A DNA stretch of 35,295 bases from Oculatellaceae cyanobacterium bins.114 (lineage in GTDB: Bacteria; Cyanobacteriota; Cyanobacteriia; Elainellales; Elainellaceae). Positions within the stretch are counted from its first letter, which is position 1; each line of letters starts with the position of its first letter. The stretch spans positions 1 through 35,295 of the forward strand of contig JANRJA010000142.1 in the NCBI GenBank assembly GCA_033764315.1, in the 5' to 3' direction. This document shows, piece after piece, positions 1 through 34,256 of the stretch. A program made the translations under genes and the position numbers. The notes under the pieces were generated by a model, which had not been told where the DNA came from, did not search any database, and saw only the letters and a list, made by a program, of their open reading frames with translations.

Positions 1-151
1 CCCATCTCATCTCCGTACAGACGCGATTAATCGCGTCTCTGCCCCTCTAATAATTGCAACACCTCATCCCGATCGGGAATTGCTTCCTCTAACCCCAATG
101 CGATCGCCCGATTGAGATCCGCCAATACCTCACGATATTGCTGGCGATCGC
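1..151. repeat. Array repeat copy 1 (left-truncated by window): pyrimidine-rich spacer + 20-bp palindrome + antisense TPR-gene 3' end, ending in HIP1 at 144-151
   Basis: Aligns by eye with 920-1048, 2334-2476 and 3302-3407. Palindrome AGACGCGATTAATCGCGTCT at 19-38; internal HIP1 at 100-107. Confidence 0.95.
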
Positions 152-152
152 C
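27..152 (-). pseudogene. Headless TPR-protein C-terminal fragment (GDRQQYREVLADLNRAIALGLEEAIPDRDEVLQLLEGQRRD*)
   Basis: Manual translation; nearly identical to the C-termini of ORFs 932-1138 and 2360-2572; no start codon or N-terminus. Confidence 0.85.
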
Positions 153-220
153 CTAAATATAAGCACTTATTCAGAGAGTGATCTGCTTTCACAGATTGGT
201 TAGAACGACGATCTGTGAGT

Positions 221-619
221 TTATGGAGCAAATGGATTAAGGAGATTCAGATCTTCAATATTTTGGAAATCTTGAACATTTCGTGTCACTAGAATGCTAT
301 CAATTTGAATTGCACAGGCTGCAATCAAAGCATCTGCTAAAGGAACTCGATACTTTCGTCGAATGTCGGCTGTGCGATCGAGAACTGGTTCAGTCAGTGA
401 AACCTCAGTTAGCGATCGCAAGAAGCTCCGAATTTGATTGGCTTCTGATTCGGTTAAAGCAGGATAGCAAAGCAATTCTACCCAGCTAATTGGGCAGTAA
501 AACCCGATAGCATCTCCAGTCAAAATTTCATTGAATAGAGGTTGAACGGTTAGATCCCCATTGAAGTAATAAATAAAGATATTGGTGTCGAGTAAATATT
601 GATTACCTGTTCCATTCAT
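221..619 (-). CDS. vapC: PIN-domain (VapC family) toxin
   Basis: YLLDTN N-terminal motif, DALIAACA, LVTRNVQDF; 132 aa; overlaps the upstream small gene. Confidence 0.92.
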   Translation of the reverse strand: MNGTGNQYLLDTNIFIYYFNGDLTVQPLFNEILTGDAIGFYCPISWVELLCYPALTESEANQIRSFLRSLTEVSLTEPVLDRTADIRRKYRVPLADALIAACAIQIDSILVTRNVQDFQNIEDLNLLNPFAP

Positions 620-827
620 CTCTTAAAGTCCTTTGGAACTGGAGCGGATCAGTCCGACTTTCTAGGAAGCCGAAGAGATTAGGAATTTCAGTCGAAGTAG
701 ATGTCGATCGCTCTAACGGTTGTAGTACAACAACAATTTCAACCAGCCCAGGTTGCACCCCCTCTGGAAGGGTCAGTTCTATTTTGCGATCGCGGTTGAC
801 TAAAACAATTTGCCGAATCGTTTCCAT
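603..827 (-). CDS. Putative VapB-type antitoxin
   Basis: 74 aa, directly upstream of vapC with a 17-bp overlap; ends DPLQFQRTLRDEW, resembling PIN-associated antitoxins. Confidence 0.75.
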   Translation of the reverse strand: METIRQIVLVNRDRKIELTLPEGVQPGLVEIVVVLQPLERSTSTSTEIPNLFGFLESRTDPLQFQRTLRDEWNR

Positions 828-867
828 TAGGCTTCAGGCATTAGGATAACTTTACTCATAATGATAG

Positions 868-1136
868 GCGATCTCCCCTTGGGAGAACTGCTTTGCCTCT
901 CTCCTCCCTCATTCACCCCGTACAGACGCGATTAATCGCGTCTCTGCCCCTCTAATAATTGCAACACCGCATCCCGATCGGGAATTGCTGCCTCTAATCC
1001 CAATGCGATCGCCCGATTGAGATCCGATAGTGCCTCACGATATTGCTGAAGGTCGCGATAGGCTAACCCGCGATTGTTGTAGGCAAGTGAATATTGCGGG
1101 TTAATTTCAATCGCACGGGTATAGTCCGGCGATCGC
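868..1136. repeat. Array repeat copy 2
   Basis: Starts at 1-mismatch HIP1 GCGATCTC (868-875); one 21-nt minirepeat (876-896); palindrome 924-943; TPR 3' end; ends at HIP1 1129-1136. Confidence 0.95.
932..1136 (-). pseudogene. Headless TPR fragment (DYTRAIEINPQYSLAYNNRGLAYRDL...EGQRRD*)
   Basis: Canonical TPR residues (AYNNRG, RAI). An extra G next to the HIP1 shifts the expected AIADY frame; no N-terminus. Confidence 0.85.
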
Positions 1137-1151
1137 AATTAACATCTTGTC

Positions 1152-1181
1152 CCTCAGTCTCTTCTGAGGATGGATTACAAT
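1152..1181 (+). promoter_or_regulatory. Putative TA promoter/operator: CCTCAG-N6-CTGAGG inverted repeat then TACAAT (-10-like); near-identical copy at 2579-2608
   Basis: Inverted repeat and -10-like hexamer about 30 bp upstream of the likely ATG at 1209. Confidence 0.35.
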
Positions 1182-1208
1182 AGCATCAAACTCTCAGGTT
1201 TTAGCGTT

Positions 1209-1511
1209 ATGCAAAGCTATTCACTGACAGAAATTCCACCTCCTTCTAATGAAATTTTGGAGCAAGCTGCAAGTGAGCCAGTCTTATTGACGCAGGAATC
1301 ACAACAAGCGCAATCTGATTACGTCCTCATGTCAGCGCAACGGTACCAAGATTTAATCAGGCGATTAGAGGAATTGGAAGACCGGGTATTTGGAACGTTT
1401 GCAGAGTCTGCACTGCGATCTTCGTCAATGGTTGGCTCAGATGCGTTTACAACTGAGCTTCAGCGGTTAGCAGCTTTAGAGAAGGTTTCTCAGCCGATAA
1501 AGGTCTTATAA
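1209..1511 (+). CDS. Phd/YefM-family antitoxin, copy A (altered C-terminus, cognate RelE absent)
   Basis: EPVLLT...YVLMSA..Y..L pattern; about 97% nt identical to the 2636-2911 copy up to 1472; alternative start at 1170. Confidence 0.78.
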   Translation: MQSYSLTEIPPPSNEILEQAASEPVLLTQESQQAQSDYVLMSAQRYQDLIRRLEELEDRVFGTFAESALRSSSMVGSDAFTTELQRLAALEKVSQPIKVL

Positions 1512-1555
1512 CACCAGAGATTAGGCTAGGTGAAGAGAGAAAATGGTTGATATAG

Positions 1556-1855
1556 ATGCACATCATTAGCTATAAGCGTTTGCGGGAATTTAGTGAACAA
1601 CATGCTGACTGTCGTGAAGCTTTAGATAACTGGTTTAAGGTCACCAGTAAGGCAGATTGGTCAAATTTGGTTGAAGTTCAAGCCACTTTTCCACAAGCTG
1701 AAGCCGTTGGAAATTTCACCGTTTTTAACGTTAAAGGAAACCATTATCGTTTGATTGTTAGCATCGACTATGAAAGGCAGTTAATTTATATCAAATACGT
1801 TCTGACTCACGCAGAATACGACAAGGAGAAATGGAAGAATGACTCTTACTTTTAA
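1556..1855 (+). CDS. higB: HigB-family toxin (RelE superfamily)
   Basis: MHIISYKRLREF, VFNVKGNHYRLI, LTHAEYDK; toxin-first order. Confidence 0.9.
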   Translation: MHIISYKRLREFSEQHADCREALDNWFKVTSKADWSNLVEVQATFPQAEAVGNFTVFNVKGNHYRLIVSIDYERQLIYIKYVLTHAEYDKEKWKNDSYF

Positions 1856-2240
1856 TGCCAGTCGATATAGTGAGCTTCTATCTCAATATCAACCCAAACT
1901 GATCAGAACCGAGGAAGACAACGAACGGGCACTTGCAGTTGTAGAAGAGTTGATGCATCGACCCAATCGAAGCCCAGAAGAGAATGAATTGTATGATTTA
2001 TTGATTGCTTTAATTGAAAAGTTTGAACACGAATTTTATCAAGTGAGTTCTCAATCTAACCCCAGTTCAATGCTTGAATTTTTGATGGAGCAACAGGGAA
2101 TTGCGATCGCTGAGTTAGCCAACGTGTTGGGGTCTGAGATAGCGGCGACTGAAATGTTAGAAGGAAAGCGTGAATTGTCGATCGCCCAAGTTAAAGTATT
2201 GAGTCAATTATTCAAAGTTGATTCAAGTGTGTTTATCTAG
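1839..2240 (+). CDS. higA: HigA-type HTH antitoxin
   Basis: Overlaps higB by 17 bp; LIEKFE and a C-terminal HTH-like region (GKRELSIAQVKVLSQLFKV). Confidence 0.87.
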   Translation: MTLTFNASRYSELLSQYQPKLIRTEEDNERALAVVEELMHRPNRSPEENELYDLLIALIEKFEHEFYQVSSQSNPSSMLEFLMEQQGIAIAELANVLGSEIAATEMLEGKRELSIAQVKVLSQLFKVDSSVFI

Positions 2241-2242
2241 GA

Positions 2243-2563
2243 GCGATCGCCCTTTGGGAGAACTGCTTTGCATCGCCCCTTGGGAGAATTGCTTTGCATC
2301 GCCTCTCTTCATCCATCTACTCATCCCCATTCACCCATCTCATCTCCGTACAGACGCGATTAATCGCGTCTCTGCCCCTCTAATAATCGCAACACCTCAT
2401 CCCGATCGGGAATTGCCTCCTCTAATCCCAATTCGATCGCCCGATTCAGATCCGCCAATGCCTCACGATATTGCTGAAGGTCGCGATAGACTAAACCTCG
2501 GTTGTAATAAGCATAAACATCTTGGGGATTGATTGCAATAGCACGAGTGTAGTCAGCGATCGC
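2243..2563. repeat. Array repeat copy 3 (most complete)
   Basis: HIP1 2243-2250, 2 nt after the higA stop; two 21-nt minirepeats each followed by ATCGC; palindrome 2352-2371; TPR 3' end; HIP1 2556-2563. Confidence 0.95.
2360..2563 (-). pseudogene. Headless TPR fragment (AIADYTRAIAINPQDVYAYYNRGLVYRDL...EGQRRD*)
   Basis: TPR consensus; begins exactly at the HIP1 that encodes Ala-Ile-Ala. Confidence 0.85.
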
Positions 2564-2635
2564 AATTAACATCTTGTCTCTCAGTCTCTTCTGAGGATGG
2601 ATTACAATAGCATCAAACTCTCAGGTTTTAGCGTT

Positions 2636-2911
2636 ATGCAAAGCTATGCACTGACAGAAATTCCACCTCTTTCTAATGAAATTTTGGAGCAGGCTGCAAG
2701 TGAGCCAGTCTTGTTGACGCAGGAATCACAACAAGCGCAATCTGATTATGTCCTCATGTCAGCGCAACAGTACCAAGATTTAATCAGGCGATTAGAGGAA
2801 TTAGAAGACCGGGTATTCGGAACGTTTGCGGAGTCTGCACTGCGATCTTCGTTAATGGTTGGCTCAGATGCGTTTACAACTGAGCTTCAGCGGTTAGCAA
2901 ATTTGGGGTAA
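2636..2911 (+). CDS. Phd/YefM-family antitoxin, copy B
   Basis: Same family pattern as copy A; 17 bp upstream of the RelE toxin; alternative start at 2597. Confidence 0.8.
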   Translation: MQSYALTEIPPLSNEILEQAASEPVLLTQESQQAQSDYVLMSAQQYQDLIRRLEELEDRVFGTFAESALRSSLMVGSDAFTTELQRLANLG

Positions 2912-2928
2912 CGTCAGTAGTACGTGAT

Positions 2929-3210
2929 ATGGCAAAACTGGATGGTCTGCAAACCGTTCTTGATTTTTTGAAAGGATTACAACCCAAGATTGCGGCTCAA
3001 ATTTCTAAGAAGGTTTTGGCTCTGAATATTGAACCATTACCCTCAGATAGCAAGGAGTTAACTGGATACTCTGGCTATTATCGAGTGGATTCGGGTGAAT
3101 ATCGCATTGTTTACCGCTTCAAAGCTGATGAAGATTTAGTTGAGATTGTTCTAGTCGGTAAGCGGAATGATGATGAAGTCTACAAGCAACTGAAAAGATT
3201 GTTAGGTTAG
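2929..3210 (+). CDS. relE: RelE/ParE-family toxin
   Basis: YYRVDSGEYRIVY...VGKRNDDEVY; 93 aa. Confidence 0.9.
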   Translation: MAKLDGLQTVLDFLKGLQPKIAAQISKKVLALNIEPLPSDSKELTGYSGYYRVDSGEYRIVYRFKADEDLVEIVLVGKRNDDEVYKQLKRLLG

Positions 3211-3407
3211 GCGATCGCCCTTTGGGGGAACTGCTTTGCATCGCCCCTTGGGAGAATTGCTTTGCATCGCCTCTCTTCATCCATCTACTCATCCCCATTC
3301 ACCCATCTCATCTCCGTACAGACGCGATTAATCACGTCTCTGCCCCTCTAATAATCGCAACACCTCATCCCGATCAGGAATTGCTGCCTCTAACCCCAAT
3401 GCGATCG
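3211..3407. repeat. Array repeat copy 4 (shortest TPR piece)
   Basis: HIP1 3211-3218 abuts the relE stop; two minirepeats; palindrome 3320-3339 with one mismatch; homology stops at GCGATCG 3401-3407, the internal HIP1 of copies 1 and 2. Confidence 0.95.
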
Positions 3408-3525
3408 AATGAATTTCTCCTATCATGTCAGTTAGTGGAATCGCTAAAAAAGCAATAGGACTTATGATTGAGGATAAACCTGGTGTAAGTCTGGTGCGAT
3501 CGCTCCCATTTCCCCTCGCCTGAAC

Positions 3526-3553
3526 TGTCTTCAATCATTTGTCTTCAATCATT
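3526..3553. repeat. 14-bp tandem duplication TGTCTTCAATCATT x2
   Basis: Seen directly, just upstream of the helicase start. Confidence 0.8.
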
Positions 3554-3575
3554 AGTGTGGTAGTGTCCCCCCTTT

Positions 3576-6227
3576 GTGAACGTTTCCTCTAGCCCTTTTG
3601 AACTTGATCTCAGTCGCCTGTTTCCATTTGAGTTAGATGGGTTTCAGCAACAGGCGATCGCCGCTCTCAACGCCAACAAATCAGTCGTGGTCTGTGCACC
3701 GACGGGTTCTGGTAAGACTCTCATTGGGGAATACGCCATATATCGAGCCATAGCAAGAAACAAGCGGGTCTTTTACACCACCCCCCTGAAGGCACTGTCA
3801 AATCAAAAACTTCGCGATTTTCGGGAACAGTTTGGGGCAGATCAGGTGGGGTTGTTGACGGGGGATGTCTCGGTCAACCGCGACGCCCCAGTGCTAGTGA
3901 TGACCACTGAAATCTTTCGTAACATGCTGTATGGCACCCCGATTGGGCAAGTGGGTACATCGCTCGTCGATGTCGAGACGGTGGTGTTAGACGAATGCCA
4001 CTACATGAACGATCGCCAACGCGGTACGGTGTGGGAGGAGTCGATCATCTATTGCCCTAACGAGGTGCAACTGGTGGCTCTGTCAGCGACGGTTGCCAAT
4101 AGTCAGCAACTCACCGATTGGATTGACCAGGTACACGGGCCAACTGAGTTAATCTACTCTGACTTTCGCCCTGTTCCACTGCAATTTTTGTTCTCTAGCC
4201 CTAAAGGATTATTTCCCCTGCTCAATCCTGAAGGCAAGGGCATCAACCCCCGACTGAAGCCCAAGGGAGGCAAGCCCAAGGGCAAACAAGAGGCTCCCAG
4301 TTTGGTGTCAGTGATTGGTCAGTTGCAACAGCGAGATATGTTGCCTGCGATTTATTTCATCTTTAGTCGGCGCGGCTGTGACCAGGCCATTAATGAATTG
4401 GATGGACTGTCACTGGTGAGTGAGGCTGAAACCGCCAAACTCAAAATGCAAATTGATGAGTTTCTAACCCGCAATCCTGAAGTCAACCGTGCCCCCCTAG
4501 AACCGCTCTATCGAGGCATCGCGGCTCACCACGCAGGCATTTTACCCGCCTGGAAGGGTTTAGTTGAGGAGCTGTTTCAACAGGGCTTAATCAAAGTCGT
4601 TTTTGCCACCGAGACTCTGGCCGCAGGGATCAACATGCCCGCTCGCACCACGGTCATCTCTAGTCTCTCTAAGCGCACAGATCGGGGACACCGTTTGTTA
4701 AATGCGTCGGAGTTTCTGCAAATGGCAGGACGAGCCGGACGCCGAGGCATGGATCCGGTGGGTTATGTTGTCACAGTGCAAAATCGGTTTGAGGGAGCCA
4801 CCGAGGGAGCTTACCTAGCCACATCCGGAGCCGATCCGCTGATTAGCCAGTTTAGCCCCAGCTATGGCATGGTGCTCAACTTGTTGCAAACCCATACGCT
4901 AGAAGAGGCGAAAGCCTTGATTGAGCGAAGCTTTGGGCAATATCTGGCGACGCTGTACTTGAAGCCCCAACAACAAGAAATTGAGCGGCTTGAGGCAGAG
5001 TTAGAACACCAACACGCTCAAATTGCTTCAGCGGATGCAGCACTGTTGGCAAACTATGAAAAGCTGCATGAACGGCTCAAAGAAGAACGCCGTTTGCTGA
5101 AGATCTTGCAACATCAAGCCCAAGACCTGCAAACCAATGAGTTGACGACGGCGTTGCCCTTTGCGATCGCGGGTACCCTGTTGAGTCTCAAGGGCAAACA
5201 CATTCCAGTGCAAACCCCGCTGCCCGCTGTGTTGGTGGCAAAAGTGCCTGGTTCAGGGCAATTCCCTTACCTGATTTGTCTAGGAAAAGACAATACCTGG
5301 TATGTTGTCACCGTGTCAGATGTAGTGGGGCTGCACGCTGAGTTTCCTCGCTTGATGGCAGCCGATCATCTGACTCCCCCGGTTGAGTTAGCCCTCAGAC
5401 CAGGGCACACCTGGAGCGGACAAGAGCAGACAGCGGCGATCGCTTATCAGATTCCGCAACCCCCCTCCGCCGCTGATCTGTCGCCTGAAGTTAAAGAGCA
5501 GCTAGAGCGAGTGGCAATGGTCGAGAGTCAAATCACCGCCCATCCAGCCCATCAGTGGGGCAATCCAGGCAAACTGGTGAAGCAGCAAAAGCGCATTGCC
5601 CGAATTCAAACCGAACTGAGCGATCGCCAACAAAAATTGAGCAAACAAACTCAACGCTATTGGCAAGAATTTCTCAGCTTGATGGATATCTTGCAACAGT
5701 TTAATTGTCTGATTGGGGTTCAGCCCACTGACCTGGGGCAAATTGCGGCGGCGATTCGAGGTGACAATGAACTGTGGCTGGGTCTAGCTCTGGCATCGGG
5801 TGAACTGGATGCCCTCGATCCACATTATCTGGCGGCGGCCTGTGCCGCACTGGTGACTGAGGTATCGCGCCCCGATAGCTGGACTAACTATGACCCGTCA
5901 GGCGAAGTGGAAGAAGCTCTCGAAGGGTTACGAGGCATTCGTCGCCAACTGTTTCAATTGCAACGTCGCCATCAAGTTGTGCTACCCATTTGGTTGGAAT
6001 ATGACTTTGTGGGATTGGTCGAGCAGTGGGCATTGGGAGAACCCTGGGTAGACCTGTGTTCCAATACCAGCCTGGATGAGGGAGATGTCGTGCGGATTTT
6101 GCGACGAACCCTCGACTTTTTATCGCAGATTCCCTACGTGCCTCATTTGTCAGCAGGTTTCAAGCAAAATGCAGTGAGAGCCATTCAGTTAATCGATCGC
6201 TTCCCGGTTAACGAAAGTATCAGCTAA
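3576..6227 (+). CDS. helY: Ski2/HelY-like DEAD/DEAH-box RNA helicase
   Basis: APTGSGKT, DECH, SAT, QMAGRAGRRG; C-terminal DSHCT-like region (DEGDVVRILRR); GTG start. Confidence 0.93.
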   Translation: MNVSSSPFELDLSRLFPFELDGFQQQAIAALNANKSVVVCAPTGSGKTLIGEYAIYRAIARNKRVFYTTPLKALSNQKLRDFREQFGADQVGLLTGDVSVNRDAPVLVMTTEIFRNMLYGTPIGQVGTSLVDVETVVLDECHYMNDRQRGTVWEESIIYCPNEVQLVALSATVANSQQLTDWIDQVHGPTELIYSDFRPVPLQFLFSSPKGLFPLLNPEGKGINPRLKPKGGKPKGKQEAPSLVSVIGQLQQRDMLPAIYFIFSRRGCDQAINELDGLSLVSEAETAKLKMQIDEFLTRNPEVNRAPLEPLYRGIAAHHAGILPAWKGLVEELFQQGLIKVVFATETLAAGINMPARTTVISSLSKRTDRGHRLLNASEFLQMAGRAGRRGMDPVGYVVTVQNRFEGATEGAYLATSGADPLISQFSPSYGMVLNLLQTHTLEEAKALIERSFGQYLATLYLKPQQQEIERLEAELEHQHAQIASADAALLANYEKLHERLKEERRLLKILQHQAQDLQTNELTTALPFAIAGTLLSLKGKHIPVQTPLPAVLVAKVPGSGQFPYLICLGKDNTWYVVTVSDVVGLHAEFPRLMAADHLTPPVELALRPGHTWSGQEQTAAIAYQIPQPPSAADLSPEVKEQLERVAMVESQITAHPAHQWGNPGKLVKQQKRIARIQTELSDRQQKLSKQTQRYWQEFLSLMDILQQFNCLIGVQPTDLGQIAAAIRGDNELWLGLALASGELDALDPHYLAAACAALVTEVSRPDSWTNYDPSGEVEEALEGLRGIRRQLFQLQRRHQVVLPIWLEYDFVGLVEQWALGEPWVDLCSNTSLDEGDVVRILRRTLDFLSQIPYVPHLSAGFKQNAVRAIQLIDRFPVNESIS

Positions 6228-8149: not shown

Positions 8150-8186
8150 AAAAGAAGGGACGCGATTAATCGCGTCCCTTCTTTTT
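8149..8186. terminator. Perfect 38-bp palindrome acting as a probable bidirectional terminator; same GACGCGATTAATCGCGTC core as the array palindrome
   Basis: AAAAAGAAGGGACGCGATTAATCGCGTCCCTTCTTTTT between convergent genes. Confidence 0.8.
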
Positions 8187-9771: not shown

Positions 9772-10131
9772 ATGGCAACCTCCGAACTTCCTCTGCCTTC
9801 CGCCTCTGGCGATCATGACCACAGCGATCCTAGTCACAGCCACGACGCAATCCATCCCCATGTCCACAGTGAGGAGTCTCTGCGCCAGATTATTAATCGT
9901 CTATCGCGGATAGAGGGGCATATTCGTGGCATTAAGACAATGGTGCAAGAGAGCCGTTCTTGCCCCGACGTATTGGTACAGGTTGCAGCGGTGCGGGGGG
10001 CACTCGATCGCGTGGCTCGCATCATCTTAGATGCACATCTGACAGAATGCATTGCCCGCGCTGCCCAGGAAGGCGATATTCAAACCGAGATTGAAGAACT
10101 GAAGTCTGCCCTCGATCGGTTTTTGCCTTAA
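9772..10131 (+). CDS. inrS: CsoR/RcnR-family nickel-sensing repressor
   Basis: His-rich N-terminus, HPHVHSEES..NRLSRIEGHIRG, CPDVLVQVAAVRGAL, H..EC; closely matches cyanobacterial InrS as I recall it. Confidence 0.85.
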   Translation: MATSELPLPSASGDHDHSDPSHSHDAIHPHVHSEESLRQIINRLSRIEGHIRGIKTMVQESRSCPDVLVQVAAVRGALDRVARIILDAHLTECIARAAQEGDIQTEIEELKSALDRFLP

Positions 10132-11135: not shown

Positions 11136-12053
11136 CTACGACCCTTGGTCTGCAATCGGTTGCTCTGGGGCTGCGATCGCCTGTTTCCGTCGTTTTAGGC
11201 GGTTGTAGCCGTAGATCATCCCTGCGATGACAAGCCAATAGGGGCTGTACACCATCAACCAGATGCCGATTTGCAGTAGATTAACCGTGAGCTCTCTCAA
11301 GGACTGAGTCGAGCTTTGCCAAGTTTCGCCGAGTTGGGTTGCCACAGTGCGATCGGGCACAGTAGAGGCGATCGCCCCTTCCAGGTTGATGTTAATCGTC
11401 GAGTAAGCCACCCGATTTTGCAGGTCTTTGAGTTGAGCGTCGATTTGTTCAATTGAATTTCGTACATTGCTCACTTCCTGCGCCACCTTCAGCACATCCC
11501 CCACACTGCCCGATCGCTCCATGATATCGAGCAACATTTCCTCTGTTTTTTGCAGATTGCGTAATCGCGCCTGAAAGTCTACCAACTGAGTCGAGACATC
11601 CTCAGCGGTGATCGACTGCCGTTGAATTGTGCCTAGCCCTGCCAGAGCGTTGATGGTTGCCTCTAATTTGTCTTGTGGCACCCGCAGTTGCATGTAAGCC
11701 GTTTGGCGGCTCCCCGTTGGCGACTCATCCTGTAACCCCAATACATCTCCCCGTTGCTGGTGGGCGATCGCCGTTGCTGCATCAATGCTTTTTTCAACCG
11801 AGTCAACCACGATCGACAGTTCAGCGGTTTTAATCAACTGAGGCAGCGATCGCGGCACTTCAGTTGCAGCCGCCACGACCGAACCATCCGCCGCAGGAGC
11901 CTGTGGAGCAGCTGCACCCGCCGTGGGAGGTTGCACATTAGAAACTGACTCTGACATCGGCGCAGGAGCACCACAACTGTTGAGAACCAACCCTCCAAGC
12001 AGAGCAGTTAATATTAACGCAGGTTGAAACCGAATGGGATAAGCACGATTCAT
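11136..12053 (-). CDS. DUF4349 domain lipoprotein
   Basis: Lipobox-like LNSC, LIKTAELSI, EDVSTQLVD..ARL, C-terminal TM helix. Confidence 0.85.
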   Translation of the reverse strand: MNRAYPIRFQPALILTALLGGLVLNSCGAPAPMSESVSNVQPPTAGAAAPQAPAADGSVVAAATEVPRSLPQLIKTAELSIVVDSVEKSIDAATAIAHQQRGDVLGLQDESPTGSRQTAYMQLRVPQDKLEATINALAGLGTIQRQSITAEDVSTQLVDFQARLRNLQKTEEMLLDIMERSGSVGDVLKVAQEVSNVRNSIEQIDAQLKDLQNRVAYSTININLEGAIASTVPDRTVATQLGETWQSSTQSLRELTVNLLQIGIWLMVYSPYWLVIAGMIYGYNRLKRRKQAIAAPEQPIADQGS

Positions 12054-12146
12054 ATCAGAAACTCCACAAGCTCTTGTTGTAGTATGGCTGCCTGATCTAG
12101 CAACACCTAAACAGTTACAATTTACGCAACAACCTTTCTTGAGTGA

Positions 12147-12629
12147 ATGGGCGCAATCTTTGACCCAAGTGGCACCTACCGCTACACCCTCTGGCGCAAC
12201 TGGGGATGTGCTCCCAAAGTGGTGTTTGTCATGTTAAACCCCAGCACTGCCGACGCCGAGCACAACGACCCGACGATTCGTCGCTGCATTGGGTTGGCTC
12301 AAGCATGGGGGTTTGGGGCGTTAGAAGTGGTGAATTTGTTTGCCTATTGTGCGACACACCCAACAGAATTGCGACAGGCAACTGACCCCATTGGAATTGA
12401 GAACGATCGCTACTTATTACAAGCCGTGCAGCGGAGCGATCGCACCCTATTGGCGTGGGGCAACTGGGGTTATTTACATCAGCGCGATCGCTGCGTGTTA
12501 AACCTATTGTCACAACAGACCTCACTGTATTGTCTGGGCATGAATCAGTCGGGTCAACCGCGCCATCCCCTTTATGTCCGACGGGATGTGAAGCCGATAC
12601 CCATGAAGACAGACATTGTTTGCAAGTAA
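12147..12629 (+). CDS. DUF1643 family protein
   Basis: YRYTLWR, MLNPSTAD, DPTIRRC, NLFAY.AT.P, PRHPLY. Confidence 0.88.
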   Translation: MGAIFDPSGTYRYTLWRNWGCAPKVVFVMLNPSTADAEHNDPTIRRCIGLAQAWGFGALEVVNLFAYCATHPTELRQATDPIGIENDRYLLQAVQRSDRTLLAWGNWGYLHQRDRCVLNLLSQQTSLYCLGMNQSGQPRHPLYVRRDVKPIPMKTDIVCK

Positions 12630-12725
12630 GCCGTTTGCAGGTGAGCCTTTGAGCGACTGATACCAATCTAAACCGTCTTTGTGACACACCTATAAATCAG
12701 CTTTAAGCGGACGTGTGGGAAGTTT

Positions 12726-12845
12726 TTGGCGGTTAAAACCGCGACTACAAAAACAAAGTCCAGCATCGCGGACTCAAGCCAATCCAGGCTTTCTGTAACT
12801 CGCGGAGGCAGGTTTTGTCCTTGTAGCTGCAACTTTAGTCGCCAA
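12726..12845. repeat. ~120-bp imperfect inverted-repeat element (MITE/REP-doublet-like)
   Basis: Arms 12726-12774 and 12798-12845 pair with mostly transition mismatches; each arm has its own small hairpin. Confidence 0.7.
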
Positions 12846-13758
12846 CGCTGCCTAAATCTAGTCTTTTCAGAGACCCTCTAGGGGCAGGCTTAATCAGATT
12901 TGTAAAGTTTTGAAAACCTTTTGCATAACTCTTGGGGCTACCTCCGACAGCTTCATAGTGACCCAATGAGTGAGGTAGTGAATGGTTCAACTGAGCAAGT
13001 AACTAAAAAGCCAATGACATGAATCAAATTCAATTTCAATACTTGGTGTGGATTTCAGCTTCAACCAAGAGAAACAGCTCAAAAATGAGATAAGGAGAGA
13101 GGTGTATTTGAAAGCAAATTAACTTTAATCATCCAATTAAATTGATATTTATTTTCACAATTTAAACGTGCAGAATCTTTTTAACCAATAGATTCATCCA
13201 CCAAACGTAAGCACGGTTATAGACAAAAATTAAATATGGACGTCGTGCTTAAGCCTAAAAACCCTTGCCAGTTTTAGGTTTAAGCATTTTCATTTTTAAA
13301 ATTCAGAAACTAAATCACGGACAATTACCGAAATAGTCATATCCAAAATTGGAGCAAATTGCTTTCATTTGAAATCAATCTATTAATTAATCACCCATAC
13401 AGGCTATCTAAAAGGGTGAGGCATAAGACAAAAAACAACCTTACATTAGAAACATAGAGTTCACGAGTTGAGATTGATTTACGAGTCAAATATTGAGGCT
13501 TTAAAAACAATTGAATGCTAGAGGTGATTCATTCTGTGGAAAATGATTTTGCGATCGCGCCTATCTTCCACAATCCCTCCAAGCCAAATCAATTGAACCG
13601 TCCCTACTTGATTTGCTAACCAAACCAATCTCAACCTTGAATTCATCGCTGGCTCGTAACGGTTGGGGTAATGCAACTGGGTTGATTGCCCCCTTCTAGC
13701 AAGACACCTTTTGCCAAACCCCAACCCTTTAATCTCCACACTTCAGGATGACCCCACC

Positions 13759-14022
13759 ATGAAAGCTGTTTATTCTAATCGCCCTCAATCATCTGCATTG
13801 TTGTCTGACTCAACCTCCAACACCTTGAATCAAACACTGGCAGTATGGTGCAGCCAAATAGCTCAATGGTTGTCTCCTCGGCTTTCTGAACCTCGCGTCT
13901 ATCAACACAGAGACAGAGCAGGTCAAGTCTATTGGTCTGGATTTGACCCCAACACAGGCTCATCTATTCGTTGGGTTTCTGAAGCAGAAATACGGATTTG
14001 GCTAGAGCAACGATATCGCTAA
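13759..14022 (+). CDS. Hypothetical protein (cyanobacterial-type EPRV..RDR.G..YW...DP..G motif)
   Basis: ATG at 13759 in the ORF 13711-14022; protein-like C-terminus SEAEIRIWLEQRY. Confidence 0.7.
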   Translation: MKAVYSNRPQSSALLSDSTSNTLNQTLAVWCSQIAQWLSPRLSEPRVYQHRDRAGQVYWSGFDPNTGSSIRWVSEAEIRIWLEQRYR

Positions 14023-30660: not shown

Positions 30661-32175
30661 ATGATAGCGACGGGTCAACCAGCACTACACTATCAGCCAA
30701 AGTACAAGCCTAATCAACTCATTTGTGGTACGGGGCAAACCGCCATTGTGACCGGATGGACGGTGAAAGGGGCGATCGCCAAAAAGTTACACCCCCACGA
30801 ATACGCCGTGATCGGGCAACTCTATAGCCCCACCCGTGGTATTGATCTGTTGGTTCGCAACCTGTTAGCCAACCCTCAGGTACGGTTTATCGTGATTTTA
30901 AACGCCACTAAAGAAGACCAAAATGCAGGAGCATGTGCCTGTTTCATTGATTTCTTGCGATCTAGCGTTGAGCAGGGCAAGACCGACACCGGGCGCGAGT
31001 GTTGGGTGGTGCGATCCGCTATCACAGGCTATATCGATATTGAAATCTCACTCGACGCATTGGAGCACCTGCGCCAGTCGGTCGAATGGAGTGAAGCAAA
31101 GTCAATTGCTGAGGCGGTTCAACAGGTTCAAGCCTATGCCACACGAGGAGCGATCGCTCCCTGGGGAACTGCTCTCACCTTTCCACAAGCCCCATTAACA
31201 CCGACAACCCTTCCAGGCGTGCGTTATGGACACCGCATTGAAGGCAAAACGATTGCTGAAACCTGGGTCAAAATAATTCACCGGATCAAAACAACCGGCA
31301 CCATTCGCCCCACTGCCTATGATGGTCACTGGCAAGAACTGATTGATTTGGTGGCGATTGTCACCGCTGAACCCGATGGATTCTACTTTCCAGACCCTAA
31401 CTATCTCCCCGTCGATCGCCCCTTCATTCAGCAATACATCTCCCAGATCTTGGATGATGCGCCTCTCCGCGAAGGTGTGAAATATACCTATGGGCAACGG
31501 TTGCGATCGTGGTTTGGGCAAGACCAGATTCAACAGGTGATCGAAAAGCTAGCCGCTGATCTCAACTCTGCCAGAGCCGTTATGTCTTTGTGGGATGTGA
31601 ATGACCACGCCGCAGGGGATAGCCCACCCTGTTTGAATCATATTTGGGTGCGAATCATCGATGGAGAACTCTCGCTCACCGCTACCTTTCGCAGCAATGA
31701 TATGTTTTCAGCGTGGGTTGCCAATGCAATGGGCTTGCGGGCATTGCAGCAACACATTCTCAAGGCAGTGAGCGACCTTAGCTCTGTCTCGCTTACATTA
31801 GGCCCGTTAATCACAATTAGCCAGAGTGCCCATATCTACGATGATTGCTGGGAGAACAGCGATCGCCTGATCGAGTCACAATATGCCAAGATCTGCCAGC
31901 AACGAGACTACGCTGACCCCATCGGCAGTTTCACCATTACCGTTCAACCTGACCTGATTGTGATAGAACACTTGACTCCAGGCTCCGGAGAAACGATTAA
32001 CTGCTATTCAGGACGGTCTGCCACCCAACTCTATCGACAGATCGCCACCCATTGCCCCGCCTTGCAACCCGAACACGCTCTCTATCTCGGCGCAGAATTG
32101 CAAAAAGCAGAGCTTGCCCTGACCCGACCTGAGCAATTTAGCTATGAACAAGACAAACCCTTAAAAGGGTTGTAG
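30661..32175 (+). CDS. thyA: Thymidylate synthase (ThyA-type) fused to an N-terminal MtrA-like and a C-terminal DUF4346-like domain
   Basis: YTYGQRL, SARA, PPC, FRSNDMFSAWVAN, SAHIYD; N-terminal GIDLLVRNLLANPQVRFIV; C-terminal HALYLGAELQKAE...YEQDKPL. Confidence 0.8.
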   Translation: MIATGQPALHYQPKYKPNQLICGTGQTAIVTGWTVKGAIAKKLHPHEYAVIGQLYSPTRGIDLLVRNLLANPQVRFIVILNATKEDQNAGACACFIDFLRSSVEQGKTDTGRECWVVRSAITGYIDIEISLDALEHLRQSVEWSEAKSIAEAVQQVQAYATRGAIAPWGTALTFPQAPLTPTTLPGVRYGHRIEGKTIAETWVKIIHRIKTTGTIRPTAYDGHWQELIDLVAIVTAEPDGFYFPDPNYLPVDRPFIQQYISQILDDAPLREGVKYTYGQRLRSWFGQDQIQQVIEKLAADLNSARAVMSLWDVNDHAAGDSPPCLNHIWVRIIDGELSLTATFRSNDMFSAWVANAMGLRALQQHILKAVSDLSSVSLTLGPLITISQSAHIYDDCWENSDRLIESQYAKICQQRDYADPIGSFTITVQPDLIVIEHLTPGSGETINCYSGRSATQLYRQIATHCPALQPEHALYLGAELQKAELALTRPEQFSYEQDKPLKGL

Positions 32176-32407
32176 TCATGGGTCACTCACTCCATCTGCA
32201 ACTATGTTCAGATCCCCGATTTTTGGTGATGCACCCTGGGGGGAATCGGTCTACCGCTCTCCTTCCAAGATACAAGGGGAGACTCTCCCAATACTTGGTT
32301 TCAGTTCCATAGGTTTCAGCTCTATTGAAATACCAGACCTGATTGACAATTGACAACGAACCGTTGACGATAAACGGTTGACCCAACTCCCTACTTCCTT
32401 TTAGCTG

Positions 32408-32842
32408 ATGGATCTGTTACTAAAAGTCAAACTACTCAACGAACATGCTCGCTTGCCCCACTATGCCCATCCTGGAGATGCAGGCTTAGATTTATTCTCA
32501 ACAGTCGAAACAGTCATCGAAGCAGGAAGCAGTGCCCTCATTCCAACAGGTCTAAGTATTCAATTGCCCCCGCACACAGAGGCTCAAGTTAGACCCCGCA
32601 GTGGGCTAGCCCTCAAGCATCAAGTCACAGTTCTCAATACCCCAGGCACAATCGACGAAGGCTATCGCGGAGAAGTTGGAGTTATCTTGATTAACCACGG
32701 TAAGTCACCTTTTCACATCACAATTGGCATGAAAATCGCGCAAATGGTGATCAAACCCGTCTATCCCGTGACGGTGCAAGCCGTTGAAGCGTTAGAGTCA
32801 ACCTCTAGAGGCGAAGGAGGATTTGGCTCTACCGGAGTTTGA
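32408..32842 (+). CDS. dut: dUTP diphosphatase
   Basis: [38 protein letters not shown]. Confidence 0.97.
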
Positions 32843-33578
32843 GCGATCGCCCCTTCACATCACCTTCTACCTCTCCTGCCAATCTGACCCATTGCCTGAC
32901 CTAATTCATTACTTAAGCCACTACCTAATTTATCTAGAGCAAATAGCTATTCACCCTGACTTTAAAGTTTTTCAGACAGAAGCGTTAACAACCCCTATCT
33001 CAAAAGCGACTCAATCTATTTACGGCATAGGATAAAACAACAAATCTGGGAAAAAGGCATTAATCATCAGCCAGAGCGAAAAAGTGACTGAAATCGCTAG
33101 CACTGCTAAAACAGGTGCTAATGAAAGATATTGCAGAAAGTAGCCCGGTTGATTATTGGCTGTTTTCTTCATGAGAGGTTTCCTGACGCAATAGTGTAGA
33201 ACTAGAGATTTTATTCACACCATAATGCAGCGTCTTTTGACAAACCTCTGACTCAAGATAGGACAATACCTTAAAGAAAACACAAGGACTTGCTCAAAAG
33301 CATTGCGTCAAAAGCCTTACTGCTTCTGAGAGAAAGCTTTCAAGCATGATTGTAACTCTCTTGATTTGTGAGGTTGGGGTGTGCTTCTTACAACACACTT
33401 AGGAGTGCTAGATAAAATTGCATAAAGTGTTTTTGTATTCGTCTTTTCTCTAGGCGATCGCGCTCCAGTCTTCAATTAGCTCTCATATTCAACACAGTCT
33501 CTGCTAATAGAGTGATGATTTAAATGCAAAAAACTTTCATTCTTATAACTAAATCATTTACTTTGGAGTCAACAAAAC

Positions 33579-34256
33579 GTGGCGTTGCAAGGCTTGTTAT
33601 TAGATGTAGATGGAACGCTCGTTTTGAGTAATGATGCTCACGCTCAAGCCTGGGTAGAGGCGTTCGCCAAATATGGATATGACATTGATTTTGATACGGT
33701 TCGTTCCATGATTGGCATGGGGGGCGATCGCATCATACCTCAGTTAGTCCCTGGTTTGAACGATGAGGAAGGTATCGGTAAAGCGATCACTGATTATCGC
33801 AAACAACTCGTTCTTGAAAAATTTGTTCCTCAACTTACCCCAGCTAATGGGTCACGGGCACTGCTGCAAAAGATGCAGACATTAGGATTAAAGTTGGTGG
33901 TTGCCAGTTCAGCCTCAAACGAAGAACTGGGAGCACTACTCAAAGCCGCTCAGGTAGAAGACCTGATTGAAGAAGCAACGACATCCGATGATGCAAATGC
34001 CTCAAAACCCGCTCCAGATATTGTCGCAGCTGCCCTCACCAAATCAAACTTTGCACCAGACCAGGTGTTGATGTTGGGCGACACTCCCTATGACATCGAA
34101 TCAGCAGGTAAAGCAGGTGTTTCAGTGATTGCATTACGATGTGGGGGATTTAAAGAAGAGCAGTTAGCGGGAGCGATCGCCATCTATAATGATCCGGCTG
34201 ATTTACTGCAACACTACAACGCATCTCCGCTAGCTCAGGAGATGCACCAACCCTAA
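33579..34256 (+). CDS. HAD-family hydrolase
   Basis: DVDGTLV, KPAPD, GDTPYD; GTG start with GGAG RBS. Confidence 0.92.
   Translation: MALQGLLLDVDGTLVLSNDAHAQAWVEAFAKYGYDIDFDTVRSMIGMGGDRIIPQLVPGLNDEEGIGKAITDYRKQLVLEKFVPQLTPANGSRALLQKMQTLGLKLVVASSASNEELGALLKAAQVEDLIEEATTSDDANASKPAPDIVAAALTKSNFAPDQVLMLGDTPYDIESAGKAGVSVIALRCGGFKEEQLAGAIAIYNDPADLLQHYNASPLAQEMHQP

Follow-up and report, generated by a model that had tools for sequence, protein, structure and literature searches.

HIP1 octamers at most joints of a chromosomal toxin-antitoxin array in a filamentous cyanobacterium

Contig JANRJA010000142.1 of Oculatellaceae cyanobacterium bins.114 (GenBank assembly GCA_033764315.1) was analysed over positions 1 to 35,295, the whole stretch being referred to here as the window. 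The window contains 65 copies of the octamer GCGATCGC, highly iterated palindrome 1 (HIP1), while dinucleotide shuffles give an expectation of 0.41. The host is a HIP1-rich, non-heterocystous filamentous cyanobacterium, and the window is chromosomal. The first 3.5 kb comprise an array in which four copies of a repeat, R, separate three toxin-antitoxin (TA) cargos. R carries the end of a tetratricopeptide repeat (TPR) gene, a 20-nt palindrome and one or more HIP1 sites. The features of the array, including its open reading frames (ORFs), are the following:

1..151 (-): copy A of R, clipped by the window start; TPR C-terminal fragment with its stop at 27-29 and coding to 143; palindrome 19-38; ends in an exact HIP1 at 144-151, a position at which copies B and C carry AAGGTCGC
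152..867 (-): cargo 1, in the opposite orientation to cargos 2 and 3; PIN/VapC toxin 221-619 with an upstream small ORF 603-827
868..1136 (-): copy B of R; left end GCGATCTC 868-875; one 26-nt unit (871-896); palindrome 924-943; TPR fragment ORF 932-1138; internal HIP1 1005-1012; right end HIP1 1129-1136
1137..2242 (+): cargo 2; antitoxin-like copy 1 1170-1511, HigB toxin 1556-1855, HigA-like regulator 1839-2240
1472..1473 (+): joint without HIP1, equivalent to 2899/2900, within the 3' end of the antitoxin-like gene and at the start of the higBA segment
2243..2563 (-): copy C of R, the longest; HIP1 2243-2250; 26-nt unit x2.2 (2246-2303); palindrome 2352-2371; TPR fragment ORF 2360-2572 up to HIP1 2556-2563 (Ala-Ile-Ala codons of AIADY)
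2564..3210 (+): cargo 3; antitoxin-like copy 2 2597-2911, ParE/RelE toxin 2929-3210
3211..3408 (-): copy D of R; HIP1 3211-3218; 26-nt unit x2.2 (3214-3271); palindrome 3320-3339 with 1 mismatch; breaks off at GCGATCGA, 3401-3408, which corresponds to the internal HIP1 of R (RAIAL codons)
3409..3503 (.): stretch between copy D and the helicase upstream region, closing in an exact HIP1 at 3496-3503

R consists of the genuine 3' end of a TPR gene (the last ~67 codons) and ~120 nt of downstream spacer, and it extends from HIP1 to HIP1. Read on the minus strand, it codes for the final TPR unit and the tail at the C-terminus (TPR_1, E = 8e-13). The translation is identical in 53 of 66 residues (80%) to residues 303-368 of P0013, a TPR protein of 368 aa, and these residues are its very C-terminus. 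P0013 contains AIADYTRAIE three times, AIADY being a motif that recurs in the TPR family from which R comes. The right end of R has three variants among the four copies, and no further copy of R is present in the remaining 31.8 kb of the window. P0101, a TPR protein of 127 aa from another source, has a 31-residue non-TPR N-terminus leading directly into AIADYTRAIE. In the protein-level comparison its truncation point, in the middle of a TPR unit at Ala-Ile-Ala, is that of copies B and C.

The spacer past the TPR stop terminates in HIP1. At this left end of R, GCG is followed by the 26-nt unit (ATCGCCCCTTGGGAGAACTGCTTTGC), which opens with ATCGC and begins at base 4 of the left-end HIP1. The unit was not found in the rest of the window or in seven other loci examined. 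It is either an insertion into HIP1 resembling the small dispersed repeat (SDR) element SDR5 or a slippage duplication primed by ATCGCC, and both explain it equally well. SDR5, a 21-nt module (Elhai et al. 2008), is described in the portion of PMC4390886 used here as inserting between bases 3 and 4 of HIP1. The unit at the left end of R likewise lies directly after HIP1 base 3, and can be read as 26 nt or as 21 nt plus a repeated ATCGC. The comparison concerns the insertion position, and SDR elements are reported only from Nostocaceae in the section of PMC5861425 that treats them, whereas the Zwf protein of the window is closest to Crinalium.

The TPR stop codon lies at the centre of the palindrome in each copy of R. 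The palindrome is a perfect one, AGACGCGATTAATCGCGTCT, with the core GCGAT-TA-ATCGC. By its sequence it looks like a small dispersed element common to several cyanobacterial orders; such SDR elements are reportedly among those described by Elhai and colleagues in 2008. A variant of the palindrome is located at 8158-8177, between two convergent genes. A 28-nt stretch around the palindrome recurs unchanged in intergenic sequence of a Nostoc metagenome-assembled genome (MAG) and of Calothrix anomala (L001 10001-10070; L002 about 10000-10030), and in the Nostoc MAG two stand in tandem between heptamer repeats. A scan of genome contigs with this 28-nt pattern gave these two loci and no related array. 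At both, the small palindromic element stands alone between genes, accompanied by neither a TPR fragment nor cassettes.

Each toxin adjoins a small partner ORF, an arrangement by which the three cargos are predicted to be type II TA modules. The toxin domains were matched as PIN (E = 4.6e-14), HigB_toxin (E = 2.4e-32), and ParE_toxin (E = 6.8e-8). The partner genes match weakly, with Phd/YefM at E = 0.022 for antitoxin-like copy 2 (below cut-off) and HTH_3 at E = 0.019. The small ORF of cargo 1 has no family match and is a presumed antitoxin. The two antitoxin-like copies of cargos 2 and 3 share 95% identity over 103 aa. Copy 1 has a differing, longer C-terminal tail, and next to it stands a complete higBA pair instead of the ParE/RelE toxin; it is probably an orphan antitoxin left after toxin replacement. 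The antitoxin-like protein shows no similarity to the gene that precedes the RelE homologue in Acaryochloris, and no solved structure matched it.

An earlier sequence-only reading of the window had placed every junction between repeat and cargo on a HIP1 octamer. All eight octamers that it listed are present, with exact GCGATCGC at 144, 1129, 2243, 2556, 3211, and 3496, GCGATCTC at 868, and GCGATCGA at 3401. The four copies of R were confirmed together with their ends, and the TPR pieces do stop at three different points. Translation confirms that the two sites in the TPR frame (AIADY and RAIAL) encode Ala-Ile-Ala, and alignment confirms the HIP1 of copy A where B and C have AAGGTCGC. The gaps of 0-2 nt between stop codons and HIP1 are also correct, since the left-end HIP1 of R follows the higA TAG by 2 nt and the parE/relE TAG by 0 nt.

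The breakpoints themselves were located by homology. Homology of A to B and C is lost between 143 and 144, homology of C to D starts exactly at 2243/3211, and D loses homology between 3407 and 3408, within R's internal HIP1. The seven sites regarded earlier as separate junctions reduce to only four independent positions. Sites 868, 2243, and 3211 are a single position, the left end of R, used three times; the A break and the D break were each used once; and 1129/2556 is one joint, duplicated later. These four positions do lie on HIP1. The generalisation to every junction fails at a fifth, the joint 1472/2899, which has no HIP1. There, B-C homology persists past HIP1 1129/2556 over 333/344 identical columns (97%) and ends between 1472 and 1473, which corresponds to 2899/2900.

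The octamer at 3496-3503 had been taken as a junction closing a remnant, and this was not borne out. The stretch 3409-3575 resembles nothing else in the window beyond HIP1 itself. The N-terminal 43 aa of ORF 3328-3534, encoded by 3409-3534, matched no longer protein in the protein search. Copy D was also considered as an internally deleted TPR gene, a possibility left unsupported, as 3409-3575 and its part of the ORF matched nothing.

The full octamer is preserved at four of the six HIP1 joints, and seven of eight bases at the other two, which suggests that the motif was present in both partners. Of the four HIP1 positions, two belong natively to R, namely the D-break site and the AIADY site, and copies A and B likewise carry the HIP1 of the D break. 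No shared motif extending past HIP1+CCC was seen at other HIP1 sites.

Copies B and C are identical at 122/131 positions in 918-1048, at 60/82 in 1049-1128, and at 333/344 from HIP1 1129 onward. Identity rises from 73% to 97% exactly at HIP1 1129 (Fisher p = 5e-10 versus the right flank). The step is abrupt, so HIP1 1129 is a sharp mosaic boundary. The alignment indicates separate histories for the TPR portions of B and C and near identity on the antitoxin side, with the octamer as the border. The divergent patch (1049-1128 versus 2477-2555, 73%) lies inside copies that are 93-97% identical, and in protein it resembles two distinct TPR units.

The coincidence was evaluated on five independent breakpoint classes, comprising the four HIP1 positions and the joint without HIP1. 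A match was counted when the boundary falls inside or at the edge of a HIP1 site. With any array position as the null and exact HIP1 required, the fraction of matching positions is 0.028 and 3/5 classes match (p = 2.2e-4). With one mismatch tolerated, the fraction is 0.044 and 4/5 classes match (p = 1.8e-5). When the null is restricted to positions outside the cargo genes, the values are 0.053 and 3/4 (p = 5.6e-4). These positional nulls are conservative because the junction sites themselves lift the local HIP1 density, which is 3.1/kb in the array and, without the five exact HIP1 of the cargo joints, 1.7/kb, equal to the rest of the window. The coincidence noticed in the earlier reading is thus significant against local HIP1 density under both the strict and the one-mismatch count.

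The earlier reading had also called for a correction for the frequent occurrence of HIP1 after stop codons. HIP1 lies within 5 nt of the stop in 1/22 genes outside the array versus 2/2 cargo-terminal genes, and the coincidence at the joints is not due to a general HIP1 habit at gene ends. The sole case among the 22 is dut (32840-32850), in which HIP1 follows the TGA stop at once.

Whether related TA cassettes end at the same HIP1 was checked on five homologues on cyanobacterial plasmids (three higBA, one RelE-type, and one vapBC), none of which has HIP1 within 50 nt of either end. HIP1 ends are not a general property of related TA cassettes. In the plasmid search at the DNA level with 1-3560 as the query, only the higBA part was matched, at ~70% identity in 6 records. 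At the protein level, the ParE/RelE and VapC queries gave matches that are all below 50% identity. The plasmid matches served to check cassette ends and were of no use for mapping breakpoints.

The region is interpreted, with a confidence slightly above even, as a mosaic built mainly by joining segments at HIP1, in which one unit was later duplicated and partly replaced. HIP1-bounded segments lie side by side in both orientations, and the TPR side of R is cut at HIP1. Each joint would have arisen from an exchange between two HIP1 (or HIP1-core) sites, either through short-homology illegitimate recombination or through a break made preferentially at HIP1 and then rejoined. A palindromic joint would permit either cargo orientation, as in the inverted cargo 1. 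The unit consisting of R and the antitoxin gene would later have been doubled through an ordinary homologous or tandem event. In one of the duplicates, higBA would have replaced the toxin, with a left joint that lacks HIP1 and a right joint at the left-end HIP1 of R. The copies of R, with 2-3 HIP1 sites each, could act as homology arms for further gain or loss of cassettes.

The proposal that HIP1 is the joint of cassette assembly draws support from the significance of the coincidence, the stop-codon and cassette controls, and the identity step at 1129, and it does not extend to the one joint without HIP1. Several points weigh against the mosaic interpretation. That joint, one of the five breakpoint classes, is 336 nt from the nearest exact HIP1, and the joint octamers at 868 and 3401 each carry a mismatch. 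Position 144-151 is no native HIP1 site of R, given the AAGGTCGC that B and C carry there, so joint 144 was not cut at a pre-existing R site. None of the five plasmid cassettes carries HIP1 at its ends, and the HIP1 sites of the donors are therefore assumed. A single locus is concerned, and the parents of every joint are inferred. HIP1 is reported to be kept by selection (PMC5861425) and to spread by substitution (Robinson 1997 as cited), so that some sites could postdate the joints. An assembly artefact was judged unlikely for this one window, as the copies differ by many substitutions and indels.

In naturally transformable bacteria, homology-facilitated illegitimate recombination combines one homologous side with one microhomology joint. 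Uptake anchored by homology at the TPR end, as put forward in the sequence-only reading, is unsupported in that form, as the TPR sides are illegitimate joints at three different points. The array differs from such events in having visible illegitimate joints on both sides of each cargo and no demonstrable anchor crossover, and for this reason the model is not demonstrable here. The joint 1472/2899 without HIP1, and the part of the array that would stem from ordinary duplication, also stand against it.

The same joints could have been formed by ordinary short-homology recombination or slippage, with HIP1 merely being the commonest shared 8-10-mer. This explanation of passive microhomology is unlikely, and part of the evidence fits it. 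HIP1 is the top 8-mer outside the array (54 copies), and HIP1-bearing pairs constitute 10% (k=8), 19% (k=9), and 24% (k=10) of the identical k-mer pairs there. The abundance of HIP1 in the window as a whole and the joint without HIP1 are in line with it as well. Robinson 1997, as cited in PMC4390886 and PMC13756078, reportedly found a similar excision frequency in E. coli, which points to a host-independent process. Under a null of passively shared k-mers, the strict count gives P(>=3 of 5) = 0.009-0.10, the upper value being reached at p = 0.25, so that passive microhomology is not firmly rejected on this count; this also weighs against the mosaic interpretation. With one mismatch, in contrast, P(>=4 of 5) = 0.0005-0.016. 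When each distinct cargo/R joint is counted, 6/7 are on HIP1, with P = 6e-6 to 1.3e-3 under the passive null. The use of the left-end HIP1 of R by three different cargos also argues against passive microhomology. The data lean towards a HIP1 preference over passive microhomology without settling the question.

A dedicated HIP1 break-and-join activity in this lineage, by which HIP1-bounded segments are excised and reinserted elsewhere at HIP1 in either orientation, is quite improbable. Such an activity, if real, would allow cyanobacteria an integrase-free, integron-like collection of accessory cassettes, TA cassettes among them. The HIP1-rich gene fragment, present in several copies, would then be both a landing pad and a homology arm during natural transformation.

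R, or parts of it, might instead be a dispersed element that targets HIP1 in the manner of SDR5 and was inserted at intergenic HIP1 sites between TA genes that were already neighbours, which would leave HIP1 at each end. B and C are bounded on both sides by HIP1 or a HIP1-like octamer, the left end of R consists of GCG and the 26-nt unit opening with ATCGC (one unit in B, 2.2 in C and D), and the 28-nt palindromic stretch of R recurs in intergenic DNA of Nostoc and Calothrix. Unlike a typical small element, however, R is a genuine TPR C-terminus, with 80% identity to the terminal part of P0013. The right end of R comes in three forms across the four copies, B-C homology runs 344 nt past R into the antitoxin gene, and the remaining 31.8 kb hold no other copy. 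The 28-nt pattern scan, moreover, gave no array and no TPR or cargo context of R elsewhere. An origin of this kind is very doubtful.

It is highly improbable that the joints lay anywhere in short spacers and that HIP1 arose or was kept there afterwards through substitution bias or selection. HIP1 is conserved by selection within and between ORFs according to the part of PMC5861425 consulted, its propagation by substitution is attributed to Robinson 1997 where that work is cited, and the unrelated dut gene also has HIP1 right after its stop. Against such a later origin, the coincidence exceeds local density (p = 2.2e-4 and 1.8e-5), also among non-genic positions (5.6e-4). Outside the array, HIP1 is sparser in non-coding DNA (1.2/kb) than in coding DNA (1.9/kb). 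The R-native sites are common to sister copies and are thus older than the joints, and the step in identity is located precisely at 1129.

A recombinase-driven cassette system of the integron or tandem-island type, with R as the attachment site, is barely credible: the short cassettes do stand in an array between direct repeats and the window begins within copy A, leaving the genes to the left outside view, but no integrase, transposase, or recombinase domain was present among the 36 ORFs scanned in the window, no tRNA gene was found there, R is a 150-320 nt gene fragment with variable ends, cargo 1 is inverted, and R folded as single-stranded DNA is no better than shuffles (z = -0.63; 25/100 shuffles fold equally well). 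The sole stable hairpin in both the minimum free energy and the centroid structures of that fold is the 20-nt perfect palindrome. TA cassettes are typical cargo of chromosomal integrons. The array resembles integron TA arrays in its compact, promoter-poor cassettes in series, trimmed near their stops and set apart by a recurring separator. It differs from them in that the window contains no integrase and no attC-like fold, the orientation is mixed, and the separator is a HIP1-bounded gene fragment.

HIP1-flanked deletion, excision, and plasmid recombination are already published, and the multi-joint cassette array is what is new. The 352-bp smtB deletion of Synechococcus PCC 6301 (Gupta et al. 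1993) is flanked by HIP1 and, in the passage of PMC13756078 that treats it, is ascribed to illegitimate recombination between HIP1 copies. HIP1-promoted excision is credited to Robinson et al. 1997 where PMC13756078 and PMC4390886 cite that study. These cases share with the array rearrangement endpoints on HIP1 and the proposal of illegitimate recombination between HIP1 copies. As far as the cited passages describe them, they are single deletions with known parents, whereas the array has several joints, inserted cassettes, inferred parents, and one joint without HIP1.

HIP1 is further linked to site-specific and illegitimate recombination in the relevant part of PMC4390886. For Synechococcus sp. 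PCC 7002, recombination of plasmids at HIP1 is cited from Akiyama et al. 1998 in PMC4390886 and PMC9239245. In an inversion of PCC 7942, each of the end genes, somB and somB2, has a HIP1 shortly before the breakpoint, by the account in PMC9239245. HIP1 is thus at or beside natural recombination points in both strains, as it is here. The two cases are, on these accounts, a plasmid fusion or an inversion, whereas the present locus is a chromosomal cassette array beside a helicase gene and fbp-tal-zwf-opcA. In homology arms, HIP1 raised integration up to 7-fold, and more than 100-fold if methylated, an effect discussed as Chi-like or as an uptake signal in the portion of bioRxiv 10.1101/2024.09.10.611283 drawn upon. 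Judged by titles and abstracts, none of the papers listed by a search on HIP1, toxin-antitoxin, and cyanobacteria describes a HIP1-joined TA array.

The function of HIP1 has been open for ~30 years, and the proposals in the parts of PMC4390886, PMC5861425, PMC13756078, and bioRxiv 10.1101/2024.09.10.611283 considered here comprise a recombination hotspot, a DNA-uptake mark, and a repair by-product. The natural evidence in print for a role in recombination amounts to a few single events. The locus offers a concrete template with four independent HIP1 breakpoint positions and one internal control joint off HIP1. It predicts that indel endpoints in compared genomes fall on HIP1 above the ~10-25% expected from shared k-mers, and it also informs the design of transformation assays. 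It points to an integrase-free route for the build-up of TA cassettes in cyanobacterial chromosomes.

The remainder of the window includes genes for a DEAD/DSHCT helicase, a MatE transporter, and an HtrA-like protease, and the fbp-tal-zwf-opcA cluster. Zwf is 91% identical to a protein of a Crinalium MAG and 86% to Oculatella and Hormoscilla proteins. A search of the window for RNA genes gave no Rfam matches, and the tRNA search gave 0 genes. The GC content is 0.44-0.46 in the array (positions 1-4000) versus mostly ~0.48-0.54 (about 0.49) elsewhere in the window, which is consistent with acquired DNA. Similarly low values also occur at 12001-14000 and 32001-34000. The helicase gene starts at 3576, and directly upstream of it, at 3526-3553, is a perfect 14-nt direct repeat (TGTCTTCAATCATT x2), which may be a regulatory site.

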